Origin: a virus
Taxonomy: Duplodnaviria > Heunggongvirae > Uroviricota > Caudoviricetes
Direction: 5' to 3' (one strand)
Virus record (IMG/VR): IMGVR_UViG_2529292719_000021
Location: 1 to 6,341 of that record
Length of the DNA stretch: 6,341 nt
The translations under genes and the position numbers were made by a program. This document shows, one piece after another, positions 1 to 6,341 of this stretch. Every line of letters starts with the position of its first letter. Positions within the stretch are counted from its first letter, which is position 1. The notes beneath the pieces are model-generated. The model had not been told where the DNA came from and searched no databases. It saw nothing but the letters and a program-made list of their open reading frames with translations.

Positions 1-56
1 GGTATCCGTTCTGCTGAAGTGTCATGGCGTTGATTTTACGGTGACTCTTCGACAGT

Positions 57-83
57 GAAAAGAAAAAAGGCCGCAGAGCGGCC
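57..83 (-). terminator. Rho-independent terminator closing the minus-strand repressor-int-cargo transcription unit
   Basis: Perfect 6-bp GC stem GGCCGC/GCGGCC with 3-nt loop at 69..83; on the minus strand it is followed by a U-run (plus-strand A-run 57..68). Lies about 110 bp downstream of the stop of the 193..759 gene. Confidence 0.6.
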
Positions 84-192
84 ATAATCACATTCAAAAA
101 TCAACAAGTTAAATAATTATCAATAACTTACAGACACACAAAAACACAGTCAACCACAACAAGTAACAGTGATGTGGTCACTTTGTGGATCA

Positions 193-759
193 TCAGCCAA
201 CAAATTTTGCAATGAAATACGTAGCCGCCGCTGTAAAAAGCGAAGTAAAGATGGCTATACACACAGGTATAATGATGCCACTCAACCGCCACTTCGTATT
301 ATCATCAACTTTGTCAAACCGCCGATTCATCTCATCCATAATCTTGTCAAAGCGTTTATCCATCGCTTCGGCAATCTCCCCCTTCAGGCTGTTAATGTCT
401 GATTTGAGCTGCTCTTTCAGGTTAGCTGTATCAGATTTAAGCTCACCTTTCAGATTCGCAATATCGCATTTAAGCTCACCTTTCAGATGTGCTATGTCTG
501 CTTTGAGTTCACCTTTCACCTCACCAACATCGGCTTTAGTTGAGAGGTTTGTAGTGCGTTCAGCAAGCGTCGCAAGGTCGTTTCTTGTTAGCGATAAATC
601 ACCTTCGAGCCGCTCAATTCGCCTTTCAAGTTTATCTGACATTCCGCCTCCACTACTGCCGCCATCGCCACCATGATAAAGCACATCACGCTCAGAATGC
701 GACACACTACCTGCTGAATTACCGAAAAGATTTCTTGCTACATTACCCATTATCACCAT
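193..759 (-). CDS. Tail-anchored membrane protein with 11-residue (hendecad) tandem repeats and a single C-terminal transmembrane helix; function unknown
   Basis: ORF of 188 aa. Contains repeats VGEVKGELKAD / IAHLKGELKCD / IANLKGELKSD / TANLKEQLKSD, then RFDKIMDEMNRRFDKVDDNTKW, then a hydrophobic stretch GIIIPVCIAIFTSLFTAAATYFIA at the C-terminus. Start is ambiguous: the ATG at 759 overlaps the upstream gene by 17 nt, while an internal ATG at 642 (MSDKLERR...) is preceded by GGAGG. The antisense plus-strand translation is Ser-rich low complexity, so minus is taken as the coding strand. Confidence 0.6.
   Translation of the reverse strand: MVIMGNVARNLFGNSAGSVSHSERDVLYHGGDGGSSGGGMSDKLERRIERLEGDLSLTRNDLATLAERTTNLSTKADVGEVKGELKADIAHLKGELKCDIANLKGELKSDTANLKEQLKSDINSLKGEIAEAMDKRFDKIMDEMNRRFDKVDDNTKWRLSGIIIPVCIAIFTSLFTAAATYFIAKFVG
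403..534 (-). repeat. Four contiguous 33-bp tandem repeats, in frame, inside the 193..759 CDS
   Basis: Plus-strand units at 403..435, 436..468, 469..501 and 502..534 (TTTGAGCTGCTCTTTCAGGTTAGCTGTATCAGA / TTTAAGCTCACCTTTCAGATTCGCAATATCGCA / TTTAAGCTCACCTTTCAGATGTGCTATGTCTGC / TTTGAGTTCACCTTTCACCTCACCAACATCGGC), with degenerate copies on both sides. Each unit encodes one 11-aa repeat. Confidence 0.85.
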
Positions 760-1243
760 CCTGCGCTTTGTCTTTCTCCAACCACTTCAGCACCGCAGAC
801 GTACGATAAAGGCTCAGGTAACCACAATTCAGGCAATGCAGCGTGTAATAAGTTTTGCGCATATCAGGTATGCTCTTAACATCACCCAAAAAAGTATAAG
901 ATACATAATGCTTTATGTTCTCTTTAATTAACTCACTCTGCTCCTCCAGGGGTAGATTGTTAAAATTTTCTGGTTTCTTATTTTTATCCCAGCAAAGATC
1001 CATACTTTCAGGAACAGATAATCGCGACGATCCACATGAAGGGCAGACACTGGAGACCCCCTTCTCAGACAAGAAACGGAAGAAGATTTCTGGCGTAATC
1101 TCCATCAGCCGCTCTTTATGTTTTTTGACACGACTCATCGACTTCTTATTGATTTCATCAGCTTCTTCTTTGCATTTATCTTCTATATATTTCGATAGTA
1201 AATAGTCATATAACTCTTTTTTTGTAGGTTTTTTTATTTCCAT
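743..1243 (-). CDS. Lys/Glu-rich protein with two distant CxxC pairs (possible split zinc ribbon); function unknown
   Basis: ORF of 166 aa. CPSC at residues 67-70 and CLNC at 146-149, preceded by His. ATG at 1243..1241 sits 2 nt after the integrase stop (TAA at 1248..1246), with GGAGG 9 nt upstream inside the int 3' end, indicating co-transcription with int. Low GC, roughly 33-43% by hand count on sampled 120-nt stretches. Confidence 0.6.
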   Translation of the reverse strand: MEIKKPTKKELYDYLLSKYIEDKCKEEADEINKKSMSRVKKHKERLMEITPEIFFRFLSEKGVSSVCPSCGSSRLSVPESMDLCWDKNKKPENFNNLPLEEQSELIKENIKHYVSYTFLGDVKSIPDMRKTYYTLHCLNCGYLSLYRTSAVLKWLEKDKAQDGDNG

Positions 1244-1245
1244 AG

Positions 1246-2223
1246 TTACATTCCTCCCAAGGGATTAAACCTCACCGCATCCTGCAAGTAATCCGGCGCA
1301 AGATGGGCATAAATCATCGTTGTCTGAATCTTTGCGTGCCCCAGAATTTTCTGGAGCGTCAGAATATTGCCGCCGTTCATCATGAAATGACTGGCGAAGG
1401 TGTGGCGCAGCGCATGAACAGCCTGGCCGTCAGGAACATCAGGTGCGACCGTTTTGATGACATCGCGAACCAATGAATAATCCAGCGTCGGAAACACCAG
1501 TTTCCCGCCCCGTTTTTTGATCTTTTCAAACAGGCTTTCAGAAATAGGAACGGTACGGTTTTTGCTGTTCTTCGTTTTTGAAAAAGTGATTCGACAATGA
1601 AGAACACGGCGCTGCTCCAGTGCCGCTACCTCGCCCCATCGCGCCCCGGTCGACAGAAGGATTTCGACGGCCAGCCGTTCATCGGGATTTTCAGCCAGTG
1701 CATCCAGCAACTGAACACATTCAGACTTACTCAGATATCCCATTTCACGCTCGTTAACCTTCATTCCTTTAAGGCCTTGAACGGGGTTATCGTTAAGAAA
1801 ATGGCCGGATGAGATGAGTGCGGTAAACATCGCGCTTAACGCCCCAATCTCTCGATTTATGGTGCTGGGCTGTATCCCCTGCTCTATCCTGGACACACGT
1901 AGCTCGGTGAGCATCGTTGTATTAAGTTTATGCACGCACGGGTCATCCATTGCCTCACTCAAGCGCAGCAATTTAAGGCGCGTGTTATGCCCTGACTTCA
2001 TTAGCTGGCCGTGGTATTTCCACCACAAGTCAATAAGCACTGACAGCGGACGGCGATCAATGGAGTTTCCTTTCCACTCATTGTTATGCTGTTGCGCCAG
2101 CACCCACCGCTCATATAAAACTGCATCCGATTTCGTTTTAAATTTTTTGCGAATGCGTTTGCCTTTACGCCCCTCAGGACGCATGTCAAGAAGATACCCT
2201 CCCGGAATTGATTTTATGCTCAT
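1246..2223 (-). CDS. int: Tyrosine site-specific integrase, P2-Int-like family
   Basis: Translation from the internal ATG at 2223: MSIKSIPGGYLLDMRPEGRKGKRIRKKFKTKSDA... Carries the recombinase boxes STGARWGE, HALRHTFASHFMMNGG and LGHAKIQTTMIYAHLAP (catalytic Tyr). The N-terminal pattern matches what I recall of P2 Int. The ORF-track start at 2373 would overlap the upstream repressor, so 2223 is preferred. Confidence 0.9.
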   Translation of the reverse strand: MSIKSIPGGYLLDMRPEGRKGKRIRKKFKTKSDAVLYERWVLAQQHNNEWKGNSIDRRPLSVLIDLWWKYHGQLMKSGHNTRLKLLRLSEAMDDPCVHKLNTTMLTELRVSRIEQGIQPSTINREIGALSAMFTALISSGHFLNDNPVQGLKGMKVNEREMGYLSKSECVQLLDALAENPDERLAVEILLSTGARWGEVAALEQRRVLHCRITFSKTKNSKNRTVPISESLFEKIKKRGGKLVFPTLDYSLVRDVIKTVAPDVPDGQAVHALRHTFASHFMMNGGNILTLQKILGHAKIQTTMIYAHLAPDYLQDAVRFNPLGGM

Positions 2224-2272
2224 TCGTGAAGCCCCAGCGTTACAAGACCACCATGCCCCCAGCGTTCCATGA

Positions 2273-2584
2273 TTAGCCGGGCTGTGTGCCAGTCTTGCGG
2301 GATTTTTGAGAAGACGATGTGTTTTCTGGCCCATCAGGGGAGAGAGAAGGACTGATCTGCCCAGCAGCCTCATTTGTTTCGTTACTCATCAACCACGTAG
2401 TGTATTTTTTAAATTCCGGGTGCATTGTGATTTTCAGTAAAACCTCCGTTCCCACACCTCGAATACCAGTCTCGTATTGCTTAACCGTACCAACCGCAAT
2501 ACCTATTGAATCCGCGAACTTTGCCTGACTAAGCCCCTCAGATTCTCGAATTGCTTTTAGCTTCTTTGATATCTCTATTGACAT
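2273..2584 (-). CDS. HTH immunity repressor (P2 C-like / XRE-type), upstream of and co-oriented with int
   Basis: Translation from the ATG at 2584..2582: MSIEISKKLKAIRESEGLSQAKFADSIGIAVGTVKQYETG..., a helix-turn-helix followed by FKKYTTWLMSNETNEAAGQISP, resembling the recalled C-terminal motif of P2 C. AGGTG lies 7 nt upstream. The repressor-then-int order on one strand with a divergent early operon matches P2/186 organisation. Confidence 0.7.
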   Translation of the reverse strand: MSIEISKKLKAIRESEGLSQAKFADSIGIAVGTVKQYETGIRGVGTEVLLKITMHPEFKKYTTWLMSNETNEAAGQISPSLSPDGPENTSSSQKSRKTGTQPG

Positions 2585-2679
2585 GGTGTGCACCTGAATA
2601 CTATATTGGTTATCAGTTGAGTACCACTTGACGCTACAAAGAGCCACAAATAGCACCAGATTGAATAGGTTATCACACC
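2585..2679. promoter_or_regulatory. Divergent promoter/operator region between the repressor and the early operon (Pc/Pe-like switch)
   Basis: 95-bp intergenic region between divergent genes. Direct repeats ATTGGTTATCAG (2605..2616) and ATAGGTTATCAC (2665..2676) share the core GGTTATCA. Plus-strand TTGACG at 2628..2633 is a possible -35; minus-strand TATAGT (complement of 2600..2605) is a possible -10 for the repressor transcript. Confidence 0.5.
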
Positions 2680-2958
2680 ATGGCAAAAGTCCTTAACACA
2701 TACGAACAAGCGGATTTTGAGCGTTTGGCGGCGTTCTACCCATACCGTAATGAACATGGGCTACCGGTACTTGAAGAAAGCCTAGAGGATTATGCGAAAC
2801 GCACAAATCAAAGCATTCTCGCTGTAAGAAGGCAGGCTGATAGATCGGTAATTCCCGTTACTCAAGAAGGAAGAAACACAAAACGCAAAGTAAATCTCTT
2901 CGCAATTTTCCTGAAAACCATCAGAAACGCAGAGAAATACGTGCAGATGACAAAATAA
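2680..2958 (+). CDS. Cox/Apl-like small early protein (putative excisionase and switch regulator)
   Basis: 92-aa basic ORF, first gene of the operon divergent from the repressor; position and size match P2 Cox / 186 Apl. The role is inferred from position, not from sequence similarity. Confidence 0.45.
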   Translation: MAKVLNTYEQADFERLAAFYPYRNEHGLPVLEESLEDYAKRTNQSILAVRRQADRSVIPVTQEGRNTKRKVNLFAIFLKTIRNAEKYVQMTK

Positions 2959-2972
2959 CGAGGTGTCATTTT

Positions 2973-3311
2973 ATGCTGAAGCAACGCCGTAATTTTTGTA
3001 CCGGAACAGAACGCCACGCTAACCGTTTCACTACCAGTGCATCACGCAGCAACATCCGCTACAGCCTGAGTGATACACACGCAACGCCGGATGGCTACCC
3101 AGTAAAACAAATCGGCGAGCACGCCTGGCTGATTGAGAAAGCTGGAATCGTGATCCACAAATGCCCACGCAATCCGTTTACCGGAAACCGCATTTTTGCT
3201 CTAAGCAGTGGCGACAATCAGTTCGGGCAGGATTTCACATTATACGAAGCACTTCGCACGGTTGATCGTCTGCTTCGCGGGCAAAGTTTTATTAAACAGG
3301 CTGATTTATAA
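2973..3311 (+). CDS. Hypothetical early protein
   Basis: 112-aa ORF; GAGGTG sits 7 nt upstream of the ATG; starts 14 nt after the previous stop. Confidence 0.5.
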   Translation: MLKQRRNFCTGTERHANRFTTSASRSNIRYSLSDTHATPDGYPVKQIGEHAWLIEKAGIVIHKCPRNPFTGNRIFALSSGDNQFGQDFTLYEALRTVDRLLRGQSFIKQADL

Positions 3312-3321
3312 CAGGTGCTTT

Positions 3322-3609
3322 ATGACCAAAGACCATGCACAAGGTGTATTTATCCGTTTTATTGATTTTCGCGGTGAACTGTTATTACGTGCATCCGCTA
3401 TTGACGGAGTGACTCCGGCGGGTAAAAACGGAGCCGACGAAGCCACTTACGTTTATCTGAACGGCACGCGACTGCTTGTGGAACTTCCGTACCAGACCGT
3501 ACGAGAAATCATTAGCGAAGCTGAAAAGGCACGCCAGGTTAATGGCGATGAACCCTATATCGAAATTATTTGTATGGATTCAGAAGCTGAAATACAGAAA
3601 GCAGATTAA
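3322..3609 (+). CDS. Hypothetical early protein
   Basis: Track ORF 3208..3609 trimmed to the internal ATG at 3322 (MTKDHAQGVF...), which follows the previous stop at 3311 and has AGGTG upstream. The longer form would overlap the upstream gene by about 100 nt. Confidence 0.5.
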   Translation: MTKDHAQGVFIRFIDFRGELLLRASAIDGVTPAGKNGADEATYVYLNGTRLLVELPYQTVREIISEAEKARQVNGDEPYIEIICMDSEAEIQKAD

Positions 3610-3617
3610 AGGGCGTT

Positions 3618-3863
3618 GTGATGGGCAAAGAATATAAAACTCTCATTAACAAAGCACTTGAGCGTTTTTATTTTCGCTTAAGTGCATCAGGCGCTCATGC
3701 TGAACGTGCGGCCCGTGACTCATTGACCAGAGCAATCCGAAGTCTGTATGACGTGGCTTTTTACGCTGATGATCTGGATGCACTTAACGAACTTTCCGAG
3801 CTAATCTGTGCCGCAGAATGCGGGGAACATATTGAACCGTATAAGCTGGGGAATATCGCATGA
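3618..3863 (+). CDS. Hypothetical early protein
   Basis: 81-aa ORF. The track starts at GTG 3618; the adjacent ATG at 3621 is the more likely start. Its stop overlaps the next start (ATGA). Confidence 0.5.
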   Translation: MMGKEYKTLINKALERFYFRLSASGAHAERAARDSLTRAIRSLYDVAFYADDLDALNELSELICAAECGEHIEPYKLGNIA

Positions 3864-3973
3864 GTATATTTATCTCATGGCTTGTTCTGATTATTTCTGT
3901 GGCCTGCGCCATTGGGATTATGCGAATTATTCATTCAGTAAAAAAGATTGAACGCTTTTTCACTGGCGAATAA
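3860..3973 (+). CDS. Small hydrophobic peptide (37 aa), putative single-pass membrane protein
   Basis: ATG at 3860 overlaps the upstream stop (ATGA). Translation MSIFISWLVLIISVACAIGIMRIIHSVKKIERFFTGE has a hydrophobic core followed by a basic tail. Absent from the ORF track, presumably because of size. Confidence 0.35.
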   Translation: MSIFISWLVLIISVACAIGIMRIIHSVKKIERFFTGE

Positions 3974-4059
3974 CAGAGCAAATAAAACCACAGGTTAAAT
4001 AAGAAAATGTAAAAACAATCCGCATTCGCGGAGGTATTCGCATACGCCAAGGAGGCGTA

Positions 4060-4263
4060 ATGGCAATTAAGCATTTTCCTGTCGTTCGTTTTACCTCCAG
4101 AGGACGTGAATACGAAGTCGACGAACGCCTGATTACCACAATCGACAAACACCGTTCAGAAAAGGATGCACATCACATCTATCTCACTGACGGCACTTAC
4201 TTCTGCGCCACGAATGTGGTGCAGGTGAACCTTATCCGACAGGTACAGGAGTCACGCAGATGA
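4060..4263 (+). CDS. Hypothetical early protein
   Basis: 67-aa ORF with a strong Shine-Dalgarno AAGGAGG at 4049..4055. Confidence 0.55.
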   Translation: MAIKHFPVVRFTSRGREYEVDERLITTIDKHRSEKDAHHIYLTDGTYFCATNVVQVNLIRQVQESRR

Positions 4264-4505
4264 CCATTCTGGATTATATCGCTGCCAATCCGGGGTGTAG
4301 CGGTGGAGAAATCGCCGCAGCACTGAATACCCCAACCACAGCCATTAATGCGGAGTTACGCCGACTCTGGCGCAGCGGTTCAGTCATAAGAAAAGAGCGC
4401 AAAACAGGCGGTCGCTTTTCTTACCAGATAAACCCGATGCCGTTCGGGTGCGGCAATCCACTTACCAACATGTTTAACCAGCTACTGAAGGAAGCCAGAG
4501 CATGA
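4260..4505 (+). CDS. Small putative winged-helix DNA-binding protein
   Basis: 81-aa ORF; ATGA overlap with the upstream stop. The N-terminus MTILDYIAANPGCSGGEIAAALN... has the look of a wHTH regulator; this is weak pattern recognition only. Confidence 0.5.
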   Translation: MTILDYIAANPGCSGGEIAAALNTPTTAINAELRRLWRSGSVIRKERKTGGRFSYQINPMPFGCGNPLTNMFNQLLKEARA

Positions 4506-4801
4506 GCGCCATCAACCACCAGGAATTACGCGAACTGGCAACTGACCTTCAACGAATGGCAACGCATCAAAAATTACTGGCGTTTCGCGCAATGCTCTCG
4601 CCGTCTGCTGTGCTGGCACTGCTGGATGAGCTGGAGCACGCCAAAACCACGGCTCCTGCCATTCGCCTGACGCTCCATCATGAAATCGCTGATTTCTGCG
4701 CAACGCTGGGGGCACCTGGCGAACCGGAAACGCCGGAAGCAATGCAGCAAGAGCTGCTGCAACGCATTGACAAGGTTTTTGATTTTTTTCTGAACCAGTA
4801 A
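4502..4801 (+). CDS. Hypothetical acidic early protein
   Basis: 99-aa ORF; ATGA overlap with the upstream stop; last gene before the 322-bp non-coding region. Confidence 0.55.
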   Translation: MSAINHQELRELATDLQRMATHQKLLAFRAMLSPSAVLALLDELEHAKTTAPAIRLTLHHEIADFCATLGAPGEPETPEAMQQELLQRIDKVFDFFLNQ

Positions 4802-4923
4802 GAAACCAGAACATGCACACACAAAAAAACCGCTTGCCATGCCGCAATCGGTCAGGTTACATTTCCGCTGCACCTCATAAAACGGGTGCCGGGATTCTCA
4901 ACCCGATACAGAGCAAAGCGCAT

Positions 4924-4945
4924 AACCGCGCCAGCGGTTTTTTTG
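4924..4945 (+). terminator. Candidate intrinsic terminator
   Basis: AACCGC-GCCA-GCGGTT hairpin (6-bp stem) followed by TTTTTTT at 4939..4945, about 120 nt after the stop at 4801. Confidence 0.4.
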
Positions 4946-4956
4946 TGCGTACTGTA

Positions 4957-4985
4957 TTGCCACGTCTTTTTCGCGTCAGAATTAT
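4957..4985 (+). promoter_or_regulatory. Candidate sigma70 promoter for the downstream genes
   Basis: TTGCCA (4957..4962), 17-nt spacer, AATTAT (4980..4985). A transcript from here would carry a leader of about 130 nt containing a UUCG-loop hairpin (about 5000..5018). Confidence 0.3.
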
Positions 4986-5123
4986 GGCGGGGCGTACGGG
5001 GCCGACTTCGGTCGGGCCGGATTCTTTGCTCTCCGGTGTTGAGAACCCTGTACGTCTCGCCACCCCGAGATTCTCAACTCTGGATGGTGAGCTATTTCTA
5101 TCACCGAGCAAAGAGGCCACACC

Positions 5124-5354
5124 ATGGCAAACCGCAAACAACAGCGCGCATACGCTGCGCGTCGTCACATCCAGACTGAAATCAACCGCAGACTTTCCCG
5201 CGCATCACGCGTCGCGCAAATCATGCACATCAATATGCTGCATGAGCGCAGCCACGCACTATCAAACATTTATTCCGCCTCTGTTTTCAGCTATCTGGCG
5301 GATGATCTGCACGAGCTTCAACAGCTCATCCAGCAGCAAAACAAACTCCATTAA
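5124..5354 (+). CDS. Small basic hypothetical protein
   Basis: 76-aa ORF; AAGAGG sits 7 nt upstream. Arg-rich N-terminus MANRKQQRAYAARRHIQTEINRR. Confidence 0.45.
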   Translation: MANRKQQRAYAARRHIQTEINRRLSRASRVAQIMHINMLHERSHALSNIYSASVFSYLADDLHELQQLIQQQNKLH

Positions 5355-5426
5355 TTCCTGTTCCGGGCCTTTCCTGCACCTTGCGGCGGGAGGCCTTCGC
5401 ACATCTGTAACAAGAGGATTGCCGCA

Positions 5427-5792
5427 ATGATTCTCGCCAACGACTTTCTTGAATACCTGCTCAACACAGAGCGTGATCTTGCCGCTCGCGTGCGTGATCG
5501 TTATGACATGTACCTGAAATCCCTGCCTGTACCGCAGCTCGCTGACGGAAAGATTGTTATTGATGGTCGCTACATGATTGACAGCCACGAGGGAAATTAC
5601 AGGCTTTACCGCATTGAAGGTGGCACCCCGTCCGTTATTGGCATTTACCAGCGCCCATCCTCTGCAATCGTCGATGTGATTGCCGACAGCATCCGCATCA
5701 CACATCGCCATGCCGACACAGAAGACACCGTGCTGGAAATTCAGCGGCTGGCTACAGTCTGCCGCGACACCCTGAATGGCATGACGAAGTAA
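5427..5792 (+). CDS. Hypothetical protein
   Basis: 121-aa ORF; AAGAGG sits 9 nt upstream; only 6 nt before the next start. Confidence 0.5.
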   Translation: MILANDFLEYLLNTERDLAARVRDRYDMYLKSLPVPQLADGKIVIDGRYMIDSHEGNYRLYRIEGGTPSVIGIYQRPSSAIVDVIADSIRITHRHADTEDTVLEIQRLATVCRDTLNGMTK

Positions 5793-5798
5793 ATCACT

Positions 5799-6341
5799 AT
5801 GACGGCAGAGTACATCAGGGACTGGCAACAACCGCGCCACGCAGTGGGGCGTGAAGGAACGGGGATCCCCGCTCCTGAATCCGCGCTTTCCTCCTGGCTG
5901 GATGCCTACCGGGCAGAGAACGAGCGCCGCCAGGAAATGGCTGATGCGGCGTTCTCCGCCACGCCGCTGGGCAACCTGATTAATAAAAGCCTGGACGCAC
6001 AGGAAAAACAGGACAAAACCATCACACTGGCAGGAGACGCCAGAAAGCAGGCACGCGGCGCGGTGGATGAAGCCATGGCCTCGCTGCGCCTGCTGCCGTC
6101 CTATCTGCGCGATCCGCTTATTCGCCACCTCTCCTTCCTGCGCAAAAAACAGGAATCTGACCGCCAGAAAGGTAAAAAGAACCAGCAGGCTGAACGCTAC
6201 GCGCGCGGGACCCTGCGCAAAATATTCGAACGTCTGGACCGCACCGACCACCGCTGGCTGACACCGGGTTATCGCGCCCTTGCCGGACGCGAACGCCTGG
6301 ATGATTTGCTTTACCTCCCGCAGCTCAACAAGCACCAGATA
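5799..6341 (+). CDS. 5' part of a larger ORF running off the window; possibly a P2 gpA-like replication initiation protein
   Basis: Open frame with no stop from the ATG at 5799 to the window end (181 codons, checked by hand). Not in the ORF track because it is unterminated. The motifs RHAVGREG and LPSYLRDPLIRHLSFLRKK resemble what I recall of the P2 A N-terminus, and the position after the small early genes fits. The family call is tentative. Confidence 0.45.
   Translation, partial: MTAEYIRDWQQPRHAVGREGTGIPAPESALSSWLDAYRAENERRQEMADAAFSATPLGNLINKSLDAQEKQDKTITLAGDARKQARGAVDEAMASLRLLPSYLRDPLIRHLSFLRKKQESDRQKGKKNQQAERYARGTLRKIFERLDRTDHRWLTPGYRALAGRERLDDLLYLPQLNKHQI

Follow-up and report, generated by a model that had tools for sequence, protein, structure and literature searches.

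A hypervariable two-gene cassette exchanged between the integrase gene and attachment site of a P2-like Escherichia coli prophage

In phage lambda, the rexAB genes lie directly downstream of the CI repressor, a position from which accessory genes can share the lysogenic transcript. Here we analysed a DNA window of 6,341 nucleotides (nt) (Caudoviricetes; positions 1 to 6,341 of IMG/VR record IMGVR_UViG_2529292719_000021), which is the left end of a ~35-kb P2/P88-like (Xuanwuvirus-like) prophage of Escherichia coli inserted at a terminator hairpin between ihfA and btuC, presumably that of ihfA. On its minus strand the order is repressor, integrase gene (int), two cargo open reading frames (ORFs; 193–1243) and then the phage attP arm (84–192). 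We are highly confident that positions 194 to ~1255 constitute a horizontally exchanged two-gene cargo cassette in a hotspot. The interval between int and the attachment site (att) of P2-like prophages has been described as a minor defence hotspot that holds 3% of P2 systems, and 6 of 8 tested loci of unknown function from the hotspots of P4 satellites were antiviral (Nucleic Acids Res 2026, PMC13586616).

As in the P2 int-att hotspot (PMC13586616), and as for the P2 lysogenic-conversion genes old, tin and Z/fun, close relatives of this prophage differ in their cargo, which is AT-rich compared to the late genes. The cargo described here differs in that PADLOC does not recognise it, and the old/tin slot (between gpA and portal) and the Z/fun slot (in the tail region) are different from the int-att slot that it occupies. 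The pair resembles lambda RexA/RexB in consisting of two genes, here predicted from gene order to share a lysogenic transcript, one for a soluble and one for an inner-membrane protein, and a lambdoid version of it (loci L024 and L025 in our numbering of compared loci) is found at the rexAB position, co-oriented with CI; it differs in lacking homology to RexA/RexB in sequence or structure. There is likewise a resemblance to the morons of Hendrix and colleagues, since the cassette consists of extra genes found in some close relatives, is atypical in composition and lies at a module boundary, but no promoter of its own was detected, only 2 nt separate gene 1 from int, and the att core serves as terminator. 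The moron-type insertion proposed in an initial annotation of this DNA therefore agrees with the variability and composition of the cassette and less well with these last three points, of which the promoter result comes from a crude scan. Phage accessory genes are commonly recognised by such a compositional jump, and the int-att slot was described before; the interest lies in what fills the slot.

The prophage of strain 2014C-3011 (L007) was 99.94% identical to the window over 1262–3000 and 94.8% identical over 1–193, and had an unrelated gene of 131 codons in place of 194–1261; as is typical of a moron, the cassette is replaced in otherwise near-identical phage genomes. Among 5426 complete E. 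coli genomes, ~300 carried the integrase and only 23 carried the cassette. The integrase was 97–99.9% identical among prophages with other cassettes, and at least four cassette types were found in the slot, which thus holds variable genes between int and the nearest att site. The near-identical backbone of L007, the small share of carriers and the number of cassette types together uphold the proposal that the cargo was acquired separately from the prophage backbone. No empty slot was found among the related prophage loci inspected, which points to replacement of one cassette by another at a hotspot and not to one insertion event. The comparison suggested in the initial annotation, with relatives lacking genes between int and att, was made with relatives that had other cassettes there, and showed that the cargo varies independently of the backbone. 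The 131-residue gene, whose product had no Pfam or PADLOC match, is probably the commonest cargo, judging from its right breakpoint (1262), which most sampled genomes share. Compared to L001, the cassette of the window was mosaic, with 37 mismatches in 88–475 followed by 2 in 476–2700.

Both edges of the cassette were sharp in the junction alignment. At the left junction, all variants share ...TTTGTGGATCA up to 194/195, which is the stop codon of gene 2. At the right junction, int is common through the codons for ...VRFNP and then continues as LGGM, IAG, LGDALYEAS or LGGA before its stop codon. As Int differs between variants beyond VRFNP, the final 3–9 int codons come with each cassette, together with its own Shine-Dalgarno sequence, and this rewriting of the last int codons may affect Int function. 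Cassettes are swapped between two conserved flanks, the attP arm (to 193) and int (to the ...VRFNP codons), most likely through homologous recombination in these flanks, and replacement between conserved flanks accounts for the jump in base composition and codon usage within a few bases of the int stop. A site-specific cassette mechanism was also considered and rejected, as a search for edge motifs returned only GGAT in common, which is too short, and homologous recombination is simpler.

The slot lies inside the packaged genome and the pair travels within the phage genome, since in a circular Klebsiella phage record int is followed by a related pair and this by tail genes. A gene 1 copy 98% identical to that of the window was present in L028 (CP191473.1; Salmonella enterica strain s1 according to the record label), which indicates that cassette and phage cross genus boundaries; the att core of L028 was the same, but the flank equivalent to window 1–58 was unmatched. 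We also observed a second recombination joint at 2379–2642. Over 1262–2379, int was 98–99% identical to L002, L004, L005 and L008; homology with these loci ended at 2379 and returned at ~2642 at only 81%, indicating that the repressor/operator segment is swapped independently of int.

The guanine-plus-cytosine (GC) content was 41.8% over 193–1243 (38.5% for ORF 743–1243 and 44.4% for ORF 193–759) and 49.4% over int (1246–2223), a significant difference by chi-square test (p = 7e-4). The GC step reported in the initial annotation is therefore real, but smaller than claimed, as int had been put at ~54%. In bins of 120 nt, the two ranges overlapped (28–52% for the cargo, 42–58% for int), and the lowest bin (28%) was 1153–1272, across the int stop. 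The maximum-likelihood single GC change point in 84–2223 fell after 1252, with 40.6% GC to the left and 49.6% to the right (log-likelihood ratio (LLR) of 8.7, vs a maximum of 7.87 in 500 shuffles), and positions within 2 LLR units of the optimum were 1226–1398. A step placed exactly at the int stop was thus nearly right, the change point being six bases away, but the homology edge lies 7–16 nt inside int.

Codon usage differed as well. GC at third codon positions (GC3) was 40–42% in the cargo and 54% in int, and synonymous codon usage, scored against the core late genes of the prophage, put the cargo genes at z = −6.1 and −4.5 and int at z = −2.0, so that cargo and int differ in both GC content and codon usage, and the cassette is unlike neighbouring phage genes in the manner of a moron. 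When the analysis was extended over the whole prophage (using L009, 35 kb, GC 52.1%), only three regions of ~1 kb reached ≤43% GC, all of them accessory, namely the int-att slot, a serine O-acetyltransferase gene and a PIN-domain gene between gpD and ogr. Eleven alternative cassettes were measured beside an int, and all 11 were AT-rich relative to it (39.6–46.3% vs 48.6–53.2%). The discontinuity at the cargo is not unique within the window, where the strongest GC shift occurs near 4204 (from 45% to 55%).

The cassette is predicted to encode a translationally coupled pair, in which gene 1 would specify a zinc-ribbon protein of the cytoplasm and gene 2 a tail-anchored membrane protein with a coiled coil. 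Only 2 nt separate the start of gene 1 from the int stop, and its Shine-Dalgarno sequence GGAGG is within the last int codons. The sole match of gene 1 was to phrog_4293 (1.1e-22), a family of unknown function, and it matched no Pfam or PADLOC family. The gene 1 family is small, with 90 clusters at 50% identity among 1.84 billion proteins. A tblastn search of 50,697 phage records with gene 1 returned no match, and an alignment scan of genome contigs returned two loci only, too few for a census. The AlphaFold2 (AF2) model of gene 1 was confident, with a predicted local distance difference test (pLDDT) score of 82.

Gene 2 probably begins at the ATG at 750, which gives 185 residues and overlaps the stop of gene 1 by 8 nt (ATGGGTAA), as in homologous pairs elsewhere; two other starts are possible, 759 (188 residues, ORF finder) and the equivalent of 642 (149 residues, the NCBI start for the L001 homologue). 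Its product is laid out as a disordered N-terminal peptide (N-peptide) with a Gly-rich linker (643–750), a coiled coil (~313–642) and a C-terminal transmembrane (TM) helix (~199–303). In the AF2 model, residues 1–36 had pLDDT <50 and were followed by helices at 37–70, 75–146 and 150–184, the last of which is hydrophobic. Gene 2 matched phrog_9415 (2.6e-15), and residues 58–167 matched PF07798 (DUF1640/CCDC90-like) at 25.6 bits (E = 1.3e-5), below the gathering threshold of 33.5 bits; the order of coiled coil and then one C-terminal TM helix is that of CCDC90-like proteins, and NCBI labels close relatives of gene 2 as 'DUF1640 domain-containing' or 'CCDC90 family'. Proteins similar to gene 2 occur in the Liberibacter SC1/SC2 phages and on a Borrelia turcica plasmid, and tblastn against plasmids gave three weak coiled-coil matches only. 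With DUF1640/CCDC90 proteins (PF07798; MCUR1, CCDC90B), Borrelia Bdr and XhlA-type proteins, gene 2 shares a long coiled coil, short tandem repeats and one C-terminal TM helix, but it differs in its N-peptide, its Gly-rich linker and its obligate zinc-ribbon partner, all absent from those annotations. Coiled-coil length varies between gene 2 alleles, and the tandem repeat within the coiled-coil codons (Table 1) is likely a site of repeat-number change and recombination. In the 186-like prophage L021 (3931–4483), the partner gene was split at the tandem repeats into ORFs of 89 and 99 residues, which suggests that repeat slippage can inactivate it.

Most alternative cassettes turned out to carry distantly related forms of this pair, in which a zinc-ribbon gene of 120 or 132 codons (its product 20–30% identical to that of gene 1) is followed by a partner with the gene 2 layout; in L003 and L004, gene 1 was present but had been missed in the annotation. 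Homologues of gene 1 (120–180 residues) always precede a partner with N-peptide, Gly-rich linker, coiled coil and C-terminal TM helix, the two genes usually overlap by 1–11 nt, and in all partners the strongest hydrophobic stretch of 19 residues (Kyte-Doolittle mean of ~2 or more) is near the C-terminus. Recombination also occurs within the pair. The coiled-coil/TM part of L013 was 97% identical to that of L004, and gene 1 and the N-peptide were of different types, with the breakpoint at 655–672, in the Gly-linker codons. Thus, the N-peptide changes together with the type of gene 1, and because it travels with gene 1 when cassettes recombine, it probably contacts the gene 1 protein. More distant pairs were found in several other settings. 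In L020, a 186-like prophage, cI is followed by other genes, then by the pair and then by int; in the Rac/lambda-like prophages L024/L025, the pair comes directly after CI and is co-oriented with it; and in Providencia as well as in a P2-like contig from a metagenome, it is a neighbour of ogr. Overall, the pair is tightly coupled and conserved, and among the loci sampled it occurs in temperate-phage contexts only. No paper on this pair was found in literature searches that covered DUF1640, the RefSeq accessions and two-gene anti-phage systems of the zinc-ribbon/coiled-coil kind.

We next consider how the cassette might be expressed. A crude consensus scan found no minus-strand promoter between 193 and 2800, although it may have missed a weak one inside int, and a strong promoter-like site at 2578–2607 (+) is divergent and faces the cox-like gene. 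The sole terminator found for the cargo is the hairpin of the att core (83–69), which on the minus strand (83..69 plus a T-run) reads as an intrinsic terminator-like hairpin, GGCCGCTCTGCGGCC, followed by TTTTTTCTTT; this hairpin appears to be the ihfA terminator, reconstituted at both prophage ends. As gene 1 lies 2 nt past int, no promoter was found and the terminator is the att core, the cassette looks more like a continuation of the int transcript than a transcription unit in its own right. The repressor would be the first gene of a lysogenic transcript that runs from the C-type repressor gene through int to the cargo, and the pair would be transcribed in the lysogen by read-through of this operon, ending at the att-core hairpin. 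RexAB-type co-transcription fits the gene order in the window (C-int-pair), in L020 (cI-...-pair-int) and in L024/L025 (CI-pair), a comparison of gene order only. Judging from this order, we consider it reasonably likely that the cassette is expressed in the lysogen.

Overall, the observations are probably best explained by an exchangeable int-att cassette carrying a pair that is probably expressed in the lysogen, with defence as the foremost candidate role. The most likely function would be a RexAB-like, lysogen-expressed defence against other phages, in which a variable cytoplasmic sensor (gene 1 plus the N-peptide) may control a membrane-anchored effector. This reading draws on the hypervariability of the pair at a hotspot, the swapping of sensor modules and the positions in lysogeny operons, including the rexAB position. 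From this pattern, we tentatively suggest that the pair may be an anti-phage system. With more reserve still, it can be put forward as a candidate for a previously unrecognised prophage two-component exclusion or abortive-infection family, which P2-like, 186-like and lambdoid phages would carry in their lysogeny operons. A rapidly swapped sensor module would then be Gly-linked to a conserved membrane effector, with length tuned by 11-residue repeats.

Several observations weigh against this reading. A simple scan found neither Pc nor a cargo promoter, so that expression in the lysogen is argued from gene order. The pair has no homology to known defence proteins and its function is a predicted one; PADLOC gave only weak coiled-coil matches for gene 2 (LmuB and ZorA, E ~1e-5 to 1e-3) and none for gene 1, and gene 1 had no structural relative in PDB or BFVD. 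Other cargo in the slot is an unrelated single gene, that of 131 codons (L002 6190–6585, L007 1190–1585), and in L026 the pair lies inside a tail module, with a putative tape-measure gene on one side and a DNA_circ_N gene on the other, and hence not in a lysogeny operon. Two genes outside the cargo, the C repressor and cox, are equally atypical and AT-rich (z = −7.7 and −6.5), and weak XhlA/haemolysin-like matches of gene 2 and its partners elsewhere fit a lysis or membrane role equally well. Known defence families were rejected as an identification, since PADLOC was empty for gene 1 and for the alternative cassettes and its gene 2 matches are coiled-coil noise.

Three other explanations were weighed. 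The low GC content could simply follow from the encoded coiled-coil/helical proteins, rich in Lys, Glu, Asn and Ile, beside an attP arm whose AT-richness has other causes, with no need for a foreign origin. Both cargo genes do have little GC at the second codon position (0.31 and 0.39), ~39–40% GC is also seen in the attP arm and host flank, and C and cox share the AT-richness, but protein composition does not account for the fall in GC3, for strongly atypical usage among purely synonymous codons, or for an unrelated cassette on a near-identical backbone when unrelated cassettes are all AT-rich as well. The synonymous-codon and comparative results largely refute this explanation, which we regard as very improbable. 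Alternatively, the pair could be cargo with a different task, either a membrane-acting, XhlA-like lysis accessory or a toxin-antitoxin (addiction) module that stabilises the prophage. In favour are its architecture of a coiled coil with a single C-terminal TM helix, the match of gene 2 to phrog_1193 'hemolysin' (6.8e-4), the weak match of one partner protein to Pfam XhlA, the tight translational coupling, typical of toxin-antitoxin pairs, and the Hok/Gef toxin at the other prophage end, which shows that addiction-type cargo occurs in this element. Elsewhere, however, the prophage carries a full lysis cassette (holin, M15 endolysin, and DUF2570 with LysC, read as a spanin pair), four of the five contexts of the pair are lysogeny operons downstream of a repressor or int and away from late genes, and extreme allelic diversity at one slot together with swapping of a sensor-like sub-module fits conflict systems better; we therefore consider a lysis or addiction role unlikely.

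Less probable again is a lysogenic-conversion factor that targets the physiology or cell envelope of the host, along the lines suggested for Borrelia Bdr proteins and for MCUR1/CCDC90B, which are mitochondrial scaffolds, and that has no role in conflict between phages. The weak resemblance of gene 2 to DUF1640/CCDC90, Borrelia Bdr and Liberibacter prophage proteins would agree with such a role, as would a serine O-acetyltransferase annotation among the other cargo of the prophage. These matches cover only the low-complexity coiled-coil/TM part and score under the Pfam cut-off, however, and conversion leaves unexplained both the hypervariability of the pair and its restriction to temperate-phage loci.

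The setting of the cassette was established from the complete prophage L009 (E. coli O26 RM8426), which is 98% identical to window 1–3000. Window positions 1–83 had a match of ~100% in all 5426 complete genomes, and AAAGAAAAAAGGCCGCAGAGCGGCC at 59–83 was taken as the att core because L009 has an exact second copy 35.1 kb away, beside ihfA. Between its att repeats, L009 carries int, a C-type repressor, a cox-like gene, an early operon, gpA replication endonuclease, portal, terminase, capsid, lysis and tail genes, gpD and ogr, a complete P2-family set, and is P2-like by its gpQ-L operon, gpA and integrase, with the att repeats as limits. The early region is 92–97% identical to P88/Xuanwuvirus phages, and a repressor is annotated at the equivalent place in L001. 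No tRNA or tmRNA that could serve as att site was found in the window; the att core is a terminator hairpin. A promoter-like site facing btuC lies at 33–61 (−) (TTTTCA, 17-nt spacer, TAAAAT) and overlaps the att core. As the cargo operon and a terminator are now directly upstream of btuC, expression of btuCED might be affected in lysogens.

Table 1. Coordinates of features at the left end of the prophage (window positions).
Feature	Position	Strand	Evidence
Host chromosome, directly upstream of btuC	1..58		btuC start codon just left of position 1; annotated btuC ends one base before match
attL core, 25 bp, AAAGAAAAAAGGCCGCAGAGCGGCC	59..83		exact direct repeat ~35.1 kb away, beside ihfA, in L009
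Phage attP arm	84..192		kept whichever cassette is present; 1–193 94–95% identical in L002, L007, L008
Cargo gene 2, predicted tail-anchored coiled-coil membrane protein	193..750	-	185 residues from ATG 750; ORF list
Tandem repeat of 33 nt (3.2 copies) behind the coiled-coil 11-residue repeats LKGELKxDIAx	414..518		Tandem Repeats Finder (TRF)
Cargo gene 1, predicted cytoplasmic zinc-ribbon protein, 166 residues	743..1243	-	ORF list; invariant C67, C70, C137, C140 (two CxxC pairs)
Right-hand cassette breakpoints, within last int codons	1253..1262		homology to L002–L008 resumes here; GC change point (1252) adjoins
Tyrosine integrase, 325 residues, conserved backbone	1246..2223	-	Pfam Int_N 2.1e-28, Phage_integrase 5.7e-20
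C-type helix-turn-helix (HTH) repressor, same orientation as int and cargo	2273..2584	-	HTH_3 2.1e-9, phrog_147 1.2e-33

Other features of the prophage were also recorded. Adjacent Rfam matches above the gathering score, to isrK (62.8 bits) and C4 antisense RNA (78.5 bits), lie at 4870–4944 and 4980–5067 (+), in the early operon upstream of gpA, where the ORF finder lists overlapping ORFs. A P4-like satellite or phage-inducible chromosomal island (PICI) was suspected from these matches and from the small genes near int, and was ruled out, as the full element, a P2-like prophage of 35 kb, has all its head, tail and lysis genes. Positions 4532–4800 (in the 99-residue ORF 4502..4801), an early-operon indel, are missing from the L001 prophage, which is otherwise 97–100% identical and has an annotated 'ash family' pseudogene at the equivalent place. 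On the minus strand, a 357-residue ORF at 5262–6335 is antisense to the high-GC gpA replication endonuclease gene and is almost certainly a spurious open frame. In L009, ParM and a partition protein follow gpA (7973–9248), the serine O-acetyltransferase gene (24815–25387, 34.6% GC) follows a tail-fibre assembly gene, a 500-residue PIN-domain protein is encoded between gpD and ogr (32622–34124, 38.4% GC), and the Hok/Gef toxin gene is beside attR (34819–34959).

These results indicate that the slot is filled by a compact, hypervariable pair that defence and domain databases do not recognise and that recurs where temperate phages place their lysogen-expressed exclusion genes, the rexAB position among them. 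Should the pair prove antiviral, it would be a small two-gene system in which sensor and effector are split by a glycine-rich recombination joint, and it would offer a tractable case of how prophages shuffle specificity.

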